IMG/VR virus record: IMGVR_UViG_2529293042_000023
Location: 1-5,739 of that record
Direction: 5' to 3' (one strand)
Origin: a virus
Lineage: Duplodnaviria > Heunggongvirae > Uroviricota > Caudoviricetes
DNA: 5,739 bases
Position 1 is the stretch's first letter, and each line of letters starts with the position of its first letter. A program made the translations under genes and the position numbers. Below, piece after piece: positions 1-5,739 of the stretch. Under the pieces are notes generated by a model. That model had not been told where the DNA came from. It saw only the letters and a list, made by a program, of their open reading frames with translations, and made no database searches.

Positions 1-3000
1 CCACCGCCGGAATAACAATCTGCCGGTCAAACGGCTGATCGTCATAAACCCTGACGGTAATGGTCCCTGATGGCCACCGTTCCGGTGCACGGGAGTCCCG
101 GGGGAAAGCTTTGCCCACTGTTTTAACGAGATCGCCTTCAATCTGGTTCGCGGACAGTTTTCCCAGAACCCGACAGTTCTCGTTAATCGTGACGTTGTTG
201 AGCGTCCCGGAGTTCGCATTCACACTGCCACTGATATCCGCATTTTTAGCGGTCAGCTTTCCGTCTGATGTCAGGGAAAATGCCGGAGGATTGCCGCCAC
301 TGGTAATGGTGGGAGCCGTCAGATATTTCAGGAACACTTCATTCATGAATATCTGATCGCCCTGACCAACAAACATCGGCTTTGTGTTGCCATTCGCAGG
401 ATTAATCATCGCAATCCTGTCTGCTGCCAGCAGCACCTGACTCTGCATGCCGTCAGAGGTGTTCTCAATACCGGCACCGATACCCGCAATATAAAGGCGT
501 CCGTCCTGCATCTGCTGCAGCTTCACTGCCCACATGCTGTTCAGGTTATTATTTGTATCAACCTGAACCTTCTGTATCTGCTGGATCGCTGCACTCTGGT
601 CTTCCAGTTTCTTATTGACGGTCTGTGTTATTTCATTGCTGACATCCGTTATGGACGTCCTGATTTCAGTCAGGTCAGGCGCAAGCTGACCGTTATCAAT
701 CTGCGTCCACAGCTCCTGAGCCAGATGGGTTTTCCCTATCTCGCCTTTGAAAAAATCCAGATAGCCTGATGCATCATCACTCGGCTGACCGACAGCCTCT
801 ACAAATGCCGATTTGCCAACGGTGTTCACACTGCGGATATAAAAGTAATAATCATGGCCCGGTTTGATATTGATACTGGCAGCTATCCAGTACAGCGCCG
901 TGCCAAGATAGCGGGCTGTGGTTTCAACCTGCCTGATATCAGCAATCCGCTTTTCCGAGAACCAGAACTCAAACTGTACCGTCGGATCATAAACCGCAAG
1001 ATGCGGCGTGGCGGTTATCTGAAAATAGCCCGGTGTCAGCTCAATCCGAGACGGCGCTGCCGGTGCGGCAATCCGGAACGATACCGATGCCGGATCGCCC
1101 TGCTGTCCCCACGCATTTACCGCCCGGACTGTCAACCTGTAGTTCCCCGGCGCCAGTTGCGTGAAGCGGTATGTGGTTTCTGTCGTCCTGGCCGTGCTGA
1201 CCAGCCGCTCACTGCCGTCATCCGCTGCCACGGTCAGGCGAAGCAGGAAGCTCACGCCCTTCACCACCTTCGGCGTGTCCCAGCGCGCCAGCACCTGATA
1301 TTCCCCGCTGTCTGCGGTGACTTCGGCGGTCAGGTGCTGCACCGCTGGCGGCGTGACACCATTCACCGTGCCGCTCTGGTCGCCGTCAAAGTGCGCCCCG
1401 TTATCCACGATGGCTTCTTTTTCCGGCACGTGCTGCACCGCCGTGATGGCAAAGGTGCCGTCCGTGTTTTCCCGGATGGAGACACAGCGGAACAGGCGAC
1501 GACGCAGTGACGGCAGGGAGAGTCCCCATACACCGTATGTCTCCACACCATCAGGCAGGGTGCTGACCTGTATCCGGTCCGGCGCGGGGTGTGCAGTGAT
1601 GGCCACGCTCACCGGCTTACCGCTGCCGTTAATCAGGTTCACCGTGGCGGCACCTGTCTCCGGCAGGGTCACCTCACGGTCCAGTGTCAGGGTGCGGCTG
1701 GCGGCATCGATGGACAGGATACGTCCGCCGGTCATGGTCCCGGCATAGTCGTTATCACAGATTTCAATAATGTCACCGGGTGTGTGACGCAGCCCCTGTG
1801 ACCCGAGCGTGAAATCCACCGTCTGCGTTTCCAGCAGTCCGGTCTTTATCACCCACAGCCCGGCACGGTGGGCCTGACCGCGACTGGTGCAGCCGAACGC
1901 ATCCATCTTCAGCAGGTTGCGTCCGTAGCGCAGTATGGCTTCCGGGTCTTCCACCAGTTCCGTGGAGGTCTGCCAGCCGTTCTGCGGGTCGGTGTAATTC
2001 ACCTCCACCGCCGTGTGGCGGTCCTTCAGGGCGCTGAAGCTGTAGCGAAACCCCACGCCGTTATCATCCACCACCACATCACTGCTGGTGTAGGGCCACA
2101 CCACATCTGACGGACGGTCCTGCACGAACGTCAGCGTCTGGCCGTTCCATACCGGCATACAGCGCATCGCCGAGCAGAAATCACTGAGAACGTCCCACGC
2201 CTTACGCTGTTGTGACAGGTACGCATTAAAGGTCATCCGCGGCTCTGTGCCCCCGAAACCATCCGGGACCGTCTGGTCGCAGTACTGCGCAATGGCATAC
2301 AGCGCCCACTTGTCCACATCCGCCGCCCCCAGGCGTTTTCCCATGCCGTAGCGCGGGTGAGTCAGCATGTCCCACAGGCACCAGGCCGGGTTGTTGCTGT
2401 ATGCCGGTTTCAGGCTGCCGTCCCAGATGCCGCTGTACGTGCGTTTTTCCGGGTCATAGTTTGACGGCACCTGGATGATGCGACCGCGGATATGGTAGTT
2501 CACCGTCATCTGCTGACCGCCAAACTGCTCCGCATCCACCTGCAGCCCCACAATCGCCGTGTTCGGGTAGCACTGTTTCACATCGATGATTTCGGTGTAT
2601 GACGACCAGAGCGTCTTATTCTGCAGCTGGTCCGTGGTGCTGTCCGCCGTCTCCCTGACCATCCGGATGTTAAAGGGCCGGGGCGGCAGATTATCCAGAA
2701 TCACCGACGCCAGGAACTGCGAGGTGGTCTTGCCGTTAATGGTGACATCCTTTTCCGTCACCCAGTTACCGTTACGCTGCAACTGAATCAGCAGTCGGAC
2801 AGAAGAGTGATTACGGTCGCCCTTTGAGGTGGTCTCCAACAGTGACTGCACCCCGAAGGTGACCCGCAGGCGGTCAATGTTCGCGGACGTAATGGTGCGC
2901 GTCACCGGCTTTGCCTTCGTCACTTCCACGCCCAGTCCGGTTTCAGCTCCGGAGGACTCAAAGCCTTCCGGTGGTGTCTGCTCCTGCTCCCCGGCACGCC

Positions 3001-3202
3001 AGACCGCGGTCACACCGTGTATCACGGGATTGCCGTCCGTGTCCGTCAGTGGGGTTTTGTTCACCAGAATACTCTGCAGTCCCTTCACCGGACCTTCTAT
3101 CGGTCCCTCACCAATCGCATCAATCACACTCATCATCTGCGTGGATTTGAGATTATCCTTCGCCTCACGAGGCGTGTGTGCCTTACCGCCACCTTTTCCC
3201 AT
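1..3202 (-). CDS. J: Tail tip / host-specificity protein J (central tail fibre), N-terminal ~1067 codons; 5'-partial in window coordinates, as the C-terminal receptor-binding part lies beyond position 1
   Basis: Minus-strand translation from ATG at 3202..3200 gives [27 protein letters not shown], recognisable as the lambda gpJ N-terminus. Spot translations further in give [19 protein letters not shown] (around 2038..1982), [19 protein letters not shown] (around 1018..962), [19 protein letters not shown] (around 538..482) and [19 protein letters not shown] (58..2), all in the same frame and all recognisable J segments. GGGGAAGG lies 4-5 nt upstream of the ATG as a ribosome-binding site. Absent from the ORF track only because no stop codon lies in the window. 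I did not scan all ~1067 codons for internal stops. Confidence 0.93.
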
Positions 3203-3305
3203 ACAGCCTTCCCCTGAATAAATTAACCGCCACTTGCCATTCCGTACAGAAGTCGGATATCCTTCGCCCGAAAAGCATGAAACACATTTCTGCCATGCTA
3301 AAGAG

Positions 3306-3340
3306 AAACCCCGGTATCAGCAGATACCGGGGTTTTCTTT
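3306..3340. terminator. Strong GC-rich hairpin with U-tracts on both strands (bidirectional intrinsic terminator or attenuator) in the J 5' leader
   Basis: Perfect inverted repeat AAACCCCGGTATC (3306..3318) / GATACCGGGGTTT (3323..3335) with 4-nt loop AGCA. On the plus strand the stem is followed by TTTTCTTT; on the minus strand the same stem is followed by TTTCTCTTT. Confidence 0.55.
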
Positions 3341-3399
3341 CATGCCCACCGATAATCCTGTTGGTTAAAACCGGTAATGGCATAAAAATTCTGAATATC

Positions 3400-3435
3400 T
3401 TCACATTTTCACACACTGACTGTGGCGCTTATAAT
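3400..3435 (+). promoter_or_regulatory. Near-consensus sigma70 promoter on the plus strand (antisense orientation relative to the tail genes)
   Basis: -35 TTCACA at 3408..3413 (5/6 match to TTGACA; a second TTCACA copy at 3400..3405), 16-bp spacer, perfect -10 TATAAT at 3430..3435. A/T-rich UP-like tract upstream (GGCATAAAAATTCTGAATATC, about 3379..3399). Predicted transcription start around 3442. Confidence 0.5.
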
Positions 3436-3441
3436 TTCGCT

Positions 3442-3539
3442 GCGTTAGTGTTTTTTTGCCCGAGTAACAAAAACAACTCCTTAACATTGATCTTCATTTG
3501 TCTGTCCCCGCAGCTCCGCGATCACTGCGGGATTTTTTT
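3442..3539 (+). ncRNA. Candidate ~100-nt small RNA encoded in the I-J intergenic spacer (promoter plus intrinsic terminator, no credible ORF); possible target-mimic or sponge sRNA
   Basis: Bounded by the TTCACA-16-TATAAT promoter and the terminator hairpin at 3507..3539. No ATG start codon lies within the predicted transcript on this strand. Contains a C/A-rich stretch GUAACAAAAACAACUCC (3464..3480) upstream of the terminator stem and ends in a U-rich tail typical of Hfq-dependent sRNAs. Boundaries are approximate. Confidence 0.4.
3507..3539 (+). terminator. Rho-independent terminator, plus strand, ending the candidate sRNA just before it would run antisense into gene I
   Basis: Stem CCCGCAG (3507..3513) / CTGCGGG (3525..3531), 11-nt loop, followed by a run of seven T (3533..3539). 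On the minus strand the stem is not followed by a U-tract, so it is unidirectional. Confidence 0.55.
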
Positions 3540-3544
3540 ATGTT

Positions 3545-4225
3545 TTATCCCTGTCGCCCGACAACCACGACCGTTCCGCCCCCGCCTTCATCACGGGTGC
3601 TGATGTCCTGGGATATACGGCGGGAGCCAACCAGCATTTCCCCGTAAGGCACCGGCATCGGGTTCCCCTGGGCAATCATGTTATCCAGCGAGGAAAAGTA
3701 CGTGTTCTGTCTGCCGTTATCCGTTGCGCGGTAATCCGGTGTTTTTGCCTTCGGGGCCAGCATCTGGGCCACACCGCCCAGAATCATGCTGGCTCCAAGT
3801 GAAAACAGCATCGTGGTGGCAGAAAAACCACCGGCTGCCAGGGCTGAACCCCATAACGCCATTGATGCCCCGGCAGTGAAGAAAGAGCCCACGATGGCTG
3901 CCGCCCCCAGCACAATCTGCAGTCCACCCTTTCCGGCCCCGGCCAGTCGCGGCACAATATGGATGACCGTTCCCTCACCCAGCTGTTCGTGAAGACGGGC
4001 GTACACCGCCTCCGGTGCCGTGTCATCACCGGCAATACGTATCTGGTACCAGCCTTCGTTCATCTGACGGCGGAATCCCGGCACCTGTAACGACAGCGCC
4101 CGGATGGCTTCCGCTGCCGTGTTCACATACAGGCTGAGGCGGCGGCCAAATCGTTGTAAATCCCCGTGAAGGCAGATGCGTGCCAGTGGCGGTGACGCCA
4201 GGCTGAATGCGTTCGTCGTTGCCAT
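3545..4225 (-). CDS. I: Tail assembly protein I (lambda gpI family): N-terminal ubiquitin-like domain and C-terminal Gly/Ala-rich hydrophobic region
   Basis: 226-aa ORF in the track (MATTNAFSLASPPLARICLHGDLQRFGRR...TVVVVGRQG), recognisable as the gpI family. Start ATG at 4225..4223 lies inside K in another frame, giving a 103-nt K/I overlap as I recall for lambda. Stop TAA at 3547..3545. Confidence 0.93.
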   Translation of the reverse strand: MATTNAFSLASPPLARICLHGDLQRFGRRLSLYVNTAAEAIRALSLQVPGFRRQMNEGWYQIRIAGDDTAPEAVYARLHEQLGEGTVIHIVPRLAGAGKGGLQIVLGAAAIVGSFFTAGASMALWGSALAAGGFSATTMLFSLGASMILGGVAQMLAPKAKTPDYRATDNGRQNTYFSSLDNMIAQGNPMPVPYGEMLVGSRRISQDISTRDEGGGGTVVVVGRQG

Positions 4226-4866
4226 TTTTCGGAATACCTCTCCCGTTTACTCAGTTGTTCAGGCAGATGGTGAAGCAGCTCACCGTTGCCGCAGTATATG
4301 GCGGCATGATTGGCCACCGATGCGCCAAAGCAGCACAGCAGGATATCGCCAGGCTGTGCGGAAGGCAGGGAAATCCTGTAAAAACCAGTCGCCTCCATAT
4401 TGTCCAGGTACAGGTTCTGACCATTGCGCCACCAGTCATCCTCACGCTCAAAATCCGGCATATCAATTCCCGCCAGATGGTAAGCATCCCGGAACAGCGT
4501 GTAACAGTCCGTCACCCCGTGCTCAAAGCGCCGTCCTGTCAGATGTGGCACACAGCGGAATTTATGAATGTCACCCCGGCAGACCAGCCACCAGGACAGT
4601 GCACTTTTTATCTGCAGCCGCCGGTCGGCCTCGCTCAGCCAGGGCAGACCACCGGGATGACTGTGGACCAGTGCCACAATCTCCCCCTGCATCTCTGCCC
4701 GCAGCCAGTCTTCCGGTGCAATACGAAAATACGCCTCCGGCTCTGCAGAGATATTCACACAAGGGATATACCGCTCCCCCTCCGGCGTTCTCACCACGAA
4801 GCCGCACGACTCCGCAGGCGCACACCGCCGGGCATGCGCCAGAATCGCTGATTCAGTCTGTGTCAT
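4123..4866 (-). CDS. K: Tail assembly protein K (lambda gpK family): N-terminal JAMM/MPN metalloprotease-like domain plus C-terminal NlpC/P60 (C40) peptidase domain
   Basis: Minus-strand ORF from ATG 4866..4864 (MTQTESAILAHARR...) to stop TGA 4125..4123, 247 aa. JAMM motif HSHPGGLPWLSEAD (H-x-H-x7-S-x2-D) at residues 68-81 with a candidate upstream Glu at residue 19. NlpC/P60-like Cys in DCYTLFRDAYHLAG (residue 121) and downstream His residues. The track's 334-aa version (from 5127) is an out-of-frame N-terminal extension running through the 3' end of L and is rejected. Confidence 0.88.
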   Translation of the reverse strand: MTQTESAILAHARRCAPAESCGFVVRTPEGERYIPCVNISAEPEAYFRIAPEDWLRAEMQGEIVALVHSHPGGLPWLSEADRRLQIKSALSWWLVCRGDIHKFRCVPHLTGRRFEHGVTDCYTLFRDAYHLAGIDMPDFEREDDWWRNGQNLYLDNMEATGFYRISLPSAQPGDILLCCFGASVANHAAIYCGNGELLHHLPEQLSKRERYSEKWQRRTHSAWRHRHWHASAFTGIYNDLAAASACM

Positions 4867-4876
4867 AAACCGGGAT

Positions 4877-5575
4877 TTACTGCGAAAGTTTATTAATGGA
4901 AAGGAAACCGCCAAAATTAGCCACCATGCCGCGCATCTCACACCCGCGCATGCACTTGCTGCATCTGTCCTTACGGATATCCGTGGTGGGGTTGTCGAAC
5001 TCATCCGCCACAGCCCCGCCCGTGTAACCACACTCATCAGAGCGGTAGGTCCACATACAGGTATTCGCCAGCATGATGCGACCGGGAAACAGCGCTCCGT
5101 CCGTCTCGGTCGGTGTAGCCAGCACAAACGAGGCCGTCATGGCTGTCAGCTGCGACATCTGCTCCACCACCCAGCGGTCACTCAGCTCCTGCTCCGGGTC
5201 CGCCTCCGGATTGCCCGCAACGAAATTCACCGCATCCAGAAAACGGGCATACACCCGGCGGCGGACCACCGTGGCCCCCACCAGACTCTGCAGGTCCTCC
5301 GCCATCCCGGTGACAAGGCCAAACAGATTGGACACCGTCAGTGACGGGCGGGCACTGCTGCCCTTCCCGTTCATCTCAAAACCGCTGCCGTCAATCGGGT
5401 ATGCCTGATATTGCCGCCCCTGCCAGGTGACCGCCTCCCCTTTTTCATTCAGCTCATTACAGAAAAAATACCGCTCACCACCCTGCACCGTCAGGTCGAT
5501 TTCCCAGAGTACCACCCGCGGTGACTGCTCTGATTTAACCGACTCGTTCAGACTTTCTTCATGAATGTCCTGCAT
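4877..5575 (-). CDS. L: Minor tail protein L (lambda gpL family, tail tip complex; C-terminal cysteine cluster)
   Basis: 232-aa ORF in the track (MQDIHEESLNE...GGFLSINKLSQ), same length and clearly recognisable as lambda gpL. Start ATG 5575..5573 overlaps the M stop codon (ATGA arrangement). Stop TAA at 4879..4877. Confidence 0.95.
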   Translation of the reverse strand: MQDIHEESLNESVKSEQSPRVVLWEIDLTVQGGERYFFCNELNEKGEAVTWQGRQYQAYPIDGSGFEMNGKGSSARPSLTVSNLFGLVTGMAEDLQSLVGATVVRRRVYARFLDAVNFVAGNPEADPEQELSDRWVVEQMSQLTAMTASFVLATPTETDGALFPGRIMLANTCMWTYRSDECGYTGGAVADEFDNPTTDIRKDRCSKCMRGCEMRGMVANFGGFLSINKLSQ

Positions 5576-5739
5576 CAGTTCACCACCTGCTCAATCGTAC
5601 AACTGAAATCACTGTACCGGGCGTTATCCGTGACGCTCCACTCCCGGCACACAACCCTCACCGTCCGGTTATGTTTCGGCGGTCGCCACAAAAAGGCACG
5701 GTAACCACCATGCCAGGATAAAAACTCTTCCAGCCAGCG
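5575..5739 (-). CDS. M: Minor tail protein M (lambda gpM family), C-terminal 54 codons only; start lies beyond the window end
   Basis: Minus-strand translation from 5739 in the frame ending at TGA 5577..5575 gives RWLEEFLSWHGGYRAFLWRPPKHNRTVRVVCREWSVTDNARYSDFSCTIEQVVN*, matching the remembered lambda gpM C-terminus (...LESFLEEHGGWKSFLWTPP...EFEQVVN). Its stop overlaps the L start codon. Confidence 0.85.
   Translation of the reverse strand, partial: RWLEEFLSWHGGYRAFLWRPPKHNRTVRVVCREWSVTDNARYSDFSCTIEQVVN

Follow-up and report, generated by a model that had tools for sequence, protein, structure and literature searches.

The closest described system is PasB (pathogenicity-associated sRNA B), an 83-nt RNA from prophage PP6 of EPEC E2348/69 (NC_011601, minus strand, 1466343-1466261; northern probe AATCCCGCAGTGATCGCGGAGCT; PMC8550237). 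The E2348/69 allele gives a northern band of ~83 nt, and its level goes down in an hfq mutant (log2 fold change of -6.8 and -2.4; PMC8550237). PasB is present in uninduced cultures and is more abundant in overnight static LB than in DMEM. RIL-seq lists 37 interactions for it, with 1820 chimeras in overnight LB vs. 258 in DMEM (PMC8550237). A 2026 preprint from the Storz laboratory names PasB-2, a variant that differs from PasB at position 27, and reports that other PasB variants are more prevalent than the E2348/69 sequence (10.64898/2026.05.13.724894).

EcOnc22, EcOnc23, and EcOnc24 are homologous Hfq-CRAC peaks on the plus strand of the Sakai prophages Sp15, Sp14, and Sp11. These Hfq-bound RNAs measure ~85 nt on northern blots and are destabilised in an hfq mutant (PMC4104026), and chimeric CLASH reads give their sequence (PMC5286369). 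Three other systems resemble PasB in part. AgvB and AsxR (EcOnc01, EcOnc02; RF02702, RF02703) are, like PasB, prophage-encoded, Hfq-binding, and expressed in lysogens, with an ARN motif that in their case sits in the 5′ variable region. They form convergent sRNA pairs at a moron site that follows PR′, flanked by the moron gene on one side and the lysis genes on the other, whereas PasB lies in the tail operon. They are also shorter (51-60 nt, with a family-specific 42-nt 3′ domain, against 83 nt), and AgvB has a CACAACA motif that PasB lacks. SroC, the core-genome sponge of GcvB, is Hfq-associated and pairs with another sRNA, as PasB does. Finally, HnrS (EcOnc10/11/12) shares with PasB a prophage location within late genes, Hfq association, and an intrinsic terminator; it is multicopy, accumulates in early stationary phase, and is a 66-nt RNA that represses hha, whereas PasB has 83 nt and no defined target (PMC13502914).

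Here, we analysed a window of 5,739 nt, the whole stretch taken from a Caudoviricetes record (IMGVR_UViG_2529293042_000023, positions 1 to 5,739). We conclude that a unit on its plus strand is very probably the gene for PasB, an already known Hfq-dependent base-pairing sRNA. Window positions 3457-3539 are identical to E2348/69 PasB at 82 of the 83 nt; the exception is position 27 (3483), with A instead of C. The 23-nt PasB probe, read as its reverse complement, matches window 3512-3534 without a difference. PasB of E2348/69 is likewise flanked by the I and J genes, here those of PP6, and in antisense to them, and the two loci have in common the terminator, Rho-independent and with a U-tail in the window, and the promoter region. 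The window differs in an I-J gap that is ~100 bp longer and in its upstream hairpin.

The window allele is probably PasB-2. Among complete E. coli replicon records, about 847 of the 963 that match the 83-nt query carry the exact window sequence; thus, the window encodes the commonest PasB variant. Of 5426 complete E. coli genomes, 1611 have the broader segment 3300-3560, as do 129 phage records, mostly of Stx-converting phages. The exact variant is present in roughly one-sixth of the complete E. coli genomes, and the share rises to ~30% when related I-J alleles are included. An earlier note on this DNA had suspected a new GcvB sponge, which is corrected here to the commonest variant of a published sRNA. 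It had also advised a search of Rfam and of the published prophage sRNAs. The first search returned nothing, since cmscan matched no family to the window (E<=1) nor to the E2348/69 and Sakai loci (E<=0.1), and PasB, PasA, and EcOnc22 are absent from Rfam 15. The second found matches to both PasB and EcOnc22/23/24.

The minus strand of the window carries the lambda-type tail genes L, K, I, and J, as shown by the ORF list and by a locus of 100% identity in E. coli E2865 that RefSeq annotates. Tail gene L is located at 4877-5575 and the gene for tail assembly protein I at 3545-4126, and positions 1-3202 hold the 5′ part of the tail-tip gene J, which has its ATG at 3202 and runs off the left edge of the window. 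The I-J gap, from the I stop codon at 3545 to the J start at 3202, spans 342 bp, vs. 60 bp in phage lambda, and its GC content is 44% vs. 58-59% in the flanking genes. As the sRNA unit is confined to this gap, it is antisense to the tail operon, the orientation that the earlier note had proposed, and overlaps no CDS. The greater length of the gap and its lower GC give it the appearance of an inserted, independent unit of the 'moron' type: extra DNA relative to lambda, with a promoter and a terminator of its own and a deviating base composition. We suggest that the PasB gene would be an AT-rich insertion of this type in the I-J gap of lambda-like prophages. Its promoter would face against the late tail operon, and transcription would stop at its own intrinsic terminator, so that the 3′ end lies 6 nt from the I stop codon. 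With this promoter of its own, PasB is made in uninduced lysogens. Expression as an sRNA from a repressed prophage, which had been predicted from the sequence, is borne out by published northern, Hfq-CRAC, and RIL-seq data for PasB and EcOnc22/23/24 from uninduced cells.

The putative promoter is of the sigma-70 type, with TTCACA (3408-3413), a 16-nt spacer, and TATAAT (3430-3435) on the plus strand. A consensus scan ranks it first among the promoter-like sites of the window, with 11 of 12 positions in agreement, and the earlier note had described it as near-ideal. Among alleles, the -10 is kept as TATAAT, AATAAT, GATAAT, or TATCAT, and the -35 is variable. Such elements as a class are not enriched: the window has four generic promoter-like sites and six terminator-like sites, vs. 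3.0 and 4.9 expected from shuffled sequence. The case for the unit rests on the quality of this promoter, on conservation, and on published transcripts, because the generic counts match those of shuffled sequence. These counts, together with an RNA fold whose stability does not exceed that of shuffled sequence (z of roughly -0.8 to -0.9), are what would be seen if a promoter-like site had arisen by chance beside a structural hairpin, with no dedicated RNA product. However, when the window was simulated 1000 times with a first-order Markov model, only 1.8% of the simulated sequences held any site of at least 11/12, and alleles that have diverged still keep both the promoter module and the terminator module. 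Above all, the RNA was detected in two pathotypes by northern blot, Hfq-CRAC, RNase E-CLASH, and RIL-seq. We dropped the idea of a chance site, whose probability is next to nil, as refuted by the published transcript data for a near-identical allele.

Regarding the 5′ end, the start at ~3442 anticipated from the sequence agrees with the promoter, which predicts transcription from ~3441-3443, but not with the published RNA, whose 5′ end corresponds to window 3457, 22 nt downstream of TATAAT. With this end, the mature RNA is 83 nt long. For the near-identical EPEC allele, a discrete transcript is thus on record as foreseen, at ~83 nt and from the equivalent of 3457 instead of the ~100 nt first estimated. 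For the TATAAT promoter to be the source of the mature RNA, a leader of 15 nt has to be removed. From the position of the promoter and the published 5′ end, we infer a putative 5′ leader GCGUUAGUGUUUUUU (3442-3456, plus strand) missing from the published mature RNA; these 15 nt would be either removed by processing or outside the transcript altogether. Alternatively, a core promoter of far lower strength might initiate transcription at 3457-3459. Sakai CLASH reads of the homologous RNA begin at the equivalent GCCUG (PMC5286369). In the predicted fold of a 98-nt transcript, the U-run of the leader pairs with the A-rich tract, and removal of the U-rich leader would also free the ARN tract described below.

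Upstream of the promoter, the allele alignment delimits an A/T-rich block (3383-3408, plus strand) that is kept in all promoter-bearing alleles despite the divergence of the adjacent -35 and spacer. Within it, TCTGA-N6-TCACA (3390-3405) departs from the CRP core pattern at a single position; by chance, a window should hold 0.17 matches of this quality. The centre of this core lies at about -44.5 from the predicted start and about -60 from the published 5′ end. Judging by sequence, the block is a CRP-like candidate and could also serve as an UP element. The higher level of PasB in LB than in glucose-containing DMEM is compatible with CRP control, without being specific for it. A CRP-like block upstream of every promoter-bearing allele offers a testable regulatory input.

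The mature RNA (3457-3539, plus strand), assigned by its match to E2348/69 PasB and here in its position-27 variant, ends in an intrinsic terminator (3507-3539) identified by scan and folds. A 7-bp GC-rich stem, CCCGCAG (3507-3513) with CUGCGGG (3525-3531), encloses an 11-nt loop and is followed by an A and U7 (T7 at 3533-3539). A GC stem followed by seven U had been reported for this unit, as had the lack of an ATG, and there is indeed none in 3442-3539. The terminator stem is invariant in 10 alleles, with loops that vary and no covariation, and RNAalifold on 10 alleles recovered this stem alone.

The C/A-rich stretch that had also been pointed out, GUAACAAAAACAACUCC, is present at 3464-3480. 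Its triplets read as an (ARN)5 tract, AGU AAC AAA AAC AAC (3463-3477, plus strand), which is unpaired in the predicted 83-nt fold, and other alleles keep (ARN)2-4. Motifs of this type are reported for the Hfq distal face in AgvB and in mRNAs. By its sequence, the stretch is more likely an (ARN)5 motif for the Hfq distal face than a decoy for GcvB, and following published motif rules Hfq would bind at 3463-3477. The suggested check on whether the stretch is single-stranded gave a split answer: it is unpaired in the 83-nt form and paired with the U-run in the hypothetical 98-nt transcript. A U7 tail after the terminator combined with an internal unpaired (ARN)5 is what class II-like Hfq sRNAs present. 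In the working that we propose, the Hfq-bound RNA would be the 83-nt form, with the A/C-rich tract on the distal face, the U7 tail and terminator, which probably hold PasB on Hfq, on the proximal face, and positions 3494-3506 as the seed.

The original interpretation of the same stretch was that of a target mimic or sponge for GcvB, in which 3464-3480 titrates GcvB by binding its GU-rich R1 seed, as AgvB does. The stretch is A/C-rich and single-stranded in the predicted mature fold, a hand alignment allows an interrupted helix of 5+4 bp with GUUGUGUUUG of GcvB R1, and PasB resembles AgvB in being Hfq-bound with an ARN tract. The pairing, however, is no better than that of shuffled sequence. 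The best RNAduplex pairing of PasB with R1 has -15.4 kcal/mol, vs. a shuffled mean of -14.0 (sd 3.1), and 33% of the shuffles are as good, in a test of low power because any A/C-rich sequence pairs with R1. A partial AgvB control reached -20.2 kcal/mol with a near-continuous helix, whereas the PasB duplex has several internal loops. Full-length GcvB as the duplex target gave long looped duplexes without meaning. Moreover, the published GcvB target consensus CACAACA is absent from the PasB unit, and conservation, the other check proposed for the stretch, failed: the C/A pattern is lost in the other alleles of the alignment, which keep A-richness alone.

Interaction data point the same way. The top blocks of both EPEC RIL-seq condition sheets (PMC8550237), the section that lists pairs of two sRNAs or intergenic RNAs, contain no gcvB::pasB chimera, the allele there differing from ours at position 27. 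In these same blocks, GcvB-SroC accounts for 945-1222 chimeras, and both GcvB and PasB are abundant on Hfq. We consider a GcvB mimic very improbable. The location of AgvB between I and J, tentatively named in support of it, was mistaken, as AgvB is found at the moron site downstream of PR′. PasB does not belong to the AgvB/AsxR families, with no RF02702 or RF02703 match at E<=1 and a different locus.

With PasB as the identity of the unit, the question of its partners can be approached from the RIL-seq data. Within the parts of the sheets considered here, the main PasB partner is pasA.E2348C_0689.IGR (774 chimeras, three libraries, odds ratio of 24.7), and pasC.E2348C_1247.IGR::pasB, involving the equivalent RNA of prophage PP5, adds 54 chimeras (PMC8550237). 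The partner is the esterase-holin intergenic RNA of two other prophages, PP2 and PP5. In PP2, the partner occupies the interval from a SASA esterase gene to a class II holin gene, on the late-gene strand, and its listed read starts (743482-743611) precede the holin start by 100-230 nt. An intrinsic terminator closes the partner region ~55 nt before the holin gene begins. Phage 434 has the same 183 bp region with 100% identity, and its annotation includes both the terminator and the holin.

From the predicted duplex, the probable seed of PasB is UCAUUUGUCUGUC (3494-3506, plus strand; PasB nt 38-50), just 5′ of the terminator, which would pair with GACAGACAGUGA of the partner over 9+3 bp. The window allele keeps this pairing, and both partner RNAs have the target site. 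In the centroid fold, 3494-3506 is unpaired, and the MFE fold adds a weak helix of 3+3 bp touching nt 41-45; on these models, the single-stranded segment is most likely the seed. This is in line with the Storz-laboratory preprint, which proposes a seed in the same region of PasB (10.64898/2026.05.13.724894). Since the energy of the PasB-partner duplex is only ~1 standard deviation better than background, the pairing with the holin leader is a lead and not a result. The holin-leader site opposite 3494-3506 in the predicted pairing reads GACAGACAG.

From these motif roles and this pairing site, we infer a possible effect on lysis genes: PasB might control lysis across prophages by pairing with the holin leader and modulating read-through or stability of the lysis-cassette mRNA. 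In a variant of this idea, the holin leader acts as a sponge for PasB. Control of lysis is a specific sub-hypothesis of the PasB explanation. We put it forward tentatively, as possible rather than probable. In its favour, ~42% of the PasB chimeras in overnight LB (774/1820) are with the PP2 esterase-holin RNA and 54 more with that of PP5, the predicted 12-bp site occurs in both partners, and the partner ends at a terminator ~55 nt before the holin. On the other hand, the interaction is known as chimeras alone, the predicted energy is unremarkable, and no phage record holds both the window allele and the esterase-holin intergenic region. The 100% identical allele comes from PPompW-type records; Stx1a phages, 434, H-19B, and similar phages are those that carry the partner region. 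As PasB-type allele and partner region never co-occur in the phage records, seed-target covariation within single phages is not an applicable test, and an effect of PasB on lysis would be strain-dependent. The window's source genome may be without the partner RNA. If true, one phage would encode, in PasB, a regulator that acts on the lysis cassette of another prophage and is possibly under catabolite control, and the predicted 12-bp holin-leader site offers a concrete first candidate target.

The EcOnc22/23/24 loci allowed us to compare PasB with diverged relatives in the same slot. The Sp15 EcOnc coordinate falls in the I-J gap of that prophage, antisense to the tail genes. CLASH reads reveal that the coordinates of the two Sakai record versions are shifted by 135 bp against each other; once this is allowed for, the CRAC peak lies on the RNA body between promoter and terminator, and the published probe is antisense to the body. 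That 33-nt probe is allele-specific, and the window differs from it at several positions. The window and the EcOnc22/23/24 locus are homologous, aligning from promoter through terminator at 72-77% identity (~73% across the aligned unit). They have in common the I-J slot, the orientation, the upstream block, the -10, a 5′ CUGCRUUA, the U-run, the A-rich tract, AAYUCC, AAUCUUCRU, and an identical terminator stem. In EcOnc22/23/24, however, the A/C tract is shorter (AAAAAUAAC), both variable segments differ from those of the window, including the putative seed, and CLASH partners such as yjbJ use CCAUAACGUU, which is absent from the window.

An alignment of 13 I-J gaps from phages and genomes generalises this pattern. 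The conserved modules are the upstream block GAATAAAAWTTCTGAAWWTCTTCACATTT, the -10, CUGCGUUA, the U-run, the A-rich tract, AAYUCC, AAUCUUCRU, and the terminator stem. Two segments are variable: 8-9 nt after AAYUCC, and the linker just before the terminator. A scan with the I protein, one genome per species, returned 13 loci with few informative alleles and several implausible hosts that are probably contamination. A conserved helix between the U-run and the A-run was dropped as a candidate, as alleles folded separately show no common 5′ hairpin.

Different variable segments would give different partners, and this fits the Sakai alleles, whose rare CLASH hybrids involve other segments and other mRNAs, e.g., yjbJ (PMC5286369). 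We raise, as a speculation that we hold to be rather doubtful in its full form, that PasB, from EPEC and ExPEC, and EcOnc22/23/24, from EHEC, are alleles of one sRNA superfamily of the I-J slot in lambdoid phages. A fixed scaffold (CRP/UP-like block, -10, A-rich Hfq tract, AAYUCC, AAUCUUCRU, and terminator stem) would carry two swapped segments serving as interchangeable seeds. Each allele would be aimed at different RNAs, PasB at the holin leader of co-resident prophages. The same slot and scaffold in PasB and EcOnc22/23/24 would unify two nomenclatures and suggest seed swapping. The EcOnc names are absent from the Storz-laboratory preprint (10.64898/2026.05.13.724894), and the PasB entry of Table S6 gives no EHEC homologue (PMC8550237); thus, the link between them may be unrecorded, our search being non-exhaustive.

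The location of the gene raises the possibility of action in cis, as the late mRNA of the same phage contains, at its I-J junction, a perfect complement of PasB, which could act there after induction. It would then regulate the tail operon of its own phage, tuning J or silencing leaky tail-gene expression in lysogens, either through an 83-bp duplex cut by RNase III after induction or through head-on promoter interference with late transcription. Such a role could coexist with trans-acting functions. The gene sits antisense inside the late operon, with 6 nt separating it from the stop codon of I, and all allele groups in lambdoid and Stx phages have it at this place despite sequence divergence. 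The PasB hairpin has no U-tail on the late strand, so late transcription can pass it, which we also count for a role in cis. However, the pairing region overlaps no CDS, and the J ribosome-binding site is 240 nt further downstream. Dependence on Hfq and the numerous trans partners detected by RIL-seq and CLASH also speak for action in trans. We regard cis-antisense control as unlikely, and the trans-acting, Hfq-dependent PasB as the better description of the unit.

Coding or type I toxin readings of the I-J unit were rejected after inspection of the small minus-strand ORFs. The start codon of a 22-aa ORF (ATG at 3496) becomes ACG in several alleles, and a 77-aa ORF (3183-3416) crosses a hairpin and enters J in another frame. 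In PhiR12_1 and 1720a-02, hypothetical CDSs are annotated across the sRNA, and these look spurious.

The gap holds a second hairpin (3309-3332, both strands), 10-bp and GC-rich, with A-run and T-run flanks, in the part that separates the PasB promoter from the start of J. Its fold has -26.4 kcal/mol on the plus strand and -28.6 on the minus strand (z ~ -6.8), and in these models it looks like a bidirectional terminator. Sakai Sp15 and E2348/69 have a different hairpin at the equivalent position.

The published 5′ end of PasB (3457, plus strand) lies 22 nt past the TATAAT of its promoter, beyond the predicted start at about 3441-3443. The CLASH reads from the Sakai strain have their 5′ ends at the equivalent GCCUG, likewise 22 nt past TATAAT, and in one CLASH chimera a U-tail is fused straight onto GCCUG. 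The 22-nt distance implies either that a 15-nt U-rich leader (within 3442-3457) is processed off or that a second promoter is used. For Sakai, Tree et al. 2014 (PMC4104026) and Waters et al. 2017 (PMC5286369) used NC_002695.1 as coordinate reference, and at 2.9 Mb its coordinates are 135 bp lower than those of NC_002695.2. Uncorrected, the peak of EcOnc22, the Sp15 homologue, seemingly falls on the upstream hairpin; with the 135-bp correction it falls on the sRNA.

Upstream of the promoter, we found a CRP-like site, AATTCTGA-ATATCT-TCACATTT (3383-3408; core TCTGA-N6-TCACA). It is kept in every promoter-bearing allele, while the adjoining -35 and spacer diverge. The site is centred at about -44.5 relative to the predicted start versus about -60 relative to the published PasB 5′ end. 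Overnight LB cultures were reported to contain more PasB than DMEM cultures (PMC8550237).

The stretch that separates the PasB promoter from the J start codon (3202, minus strand) contains a strong, GC-rich 10-bp hairpin (3296-3345; stem 3309-3318 with 3323-3332), with an A-run on one side and a T-run on the other. On either strand it folds at -26 to -29 kcal/mol, with a z-score near -6.8, and by appearance it looks like a bidirectional terminator. This hairpin belongs to about 100 bp that are absent from E2348/69 and Sakai Sp15, which instead carry another hairpin, GGCACCC-CGGA-GGGTGCC, at the equivalent position.

In the EPEC RIL-seq data (PMC8550237), the main partner of PasB comes from the esterase-holin intergenic region (1183-1365 of the E2348/69 PP2 locus; 1501-1683 of the phage 434 locus). 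Phage 434 carries the E2348/69 PP2 region at 100% identity, and many Stx1a phages carry it at 99.5%. PasA is encoded on its opposite strand, an intrinsic terminator lies about 55 nt ahead of the holin start, and Rfam has no family for the region.

PasB-family alleles were also found on three short contigs with E. coli-type lambdoid tail genes, labelled as Streptomyces flavalbus, Parendozoicomonas haliclonae, and a Clostridiales MAG (L003, L005, and L012), with I-protein matches at 89-97% identity; most likely, these contigs are contamination in those assemblies. Automatic annotation places "hypothetical protein" CDSs over the sRNA region, on the tail-gene strand, in PhiR12_1 (407-505 of locus L017) and 1720a-02 (432-584 of locus L018); these look spurious, as their reading frames are not kept from allele to allele. 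As for gene I itself, the longest ORF (3545-4225, ATG at 4225) encodes 226 aa and would share about 100 nt with the end of K, whereas the RefSeq call at the identical locus is shorter (193 aa, start at 4126).
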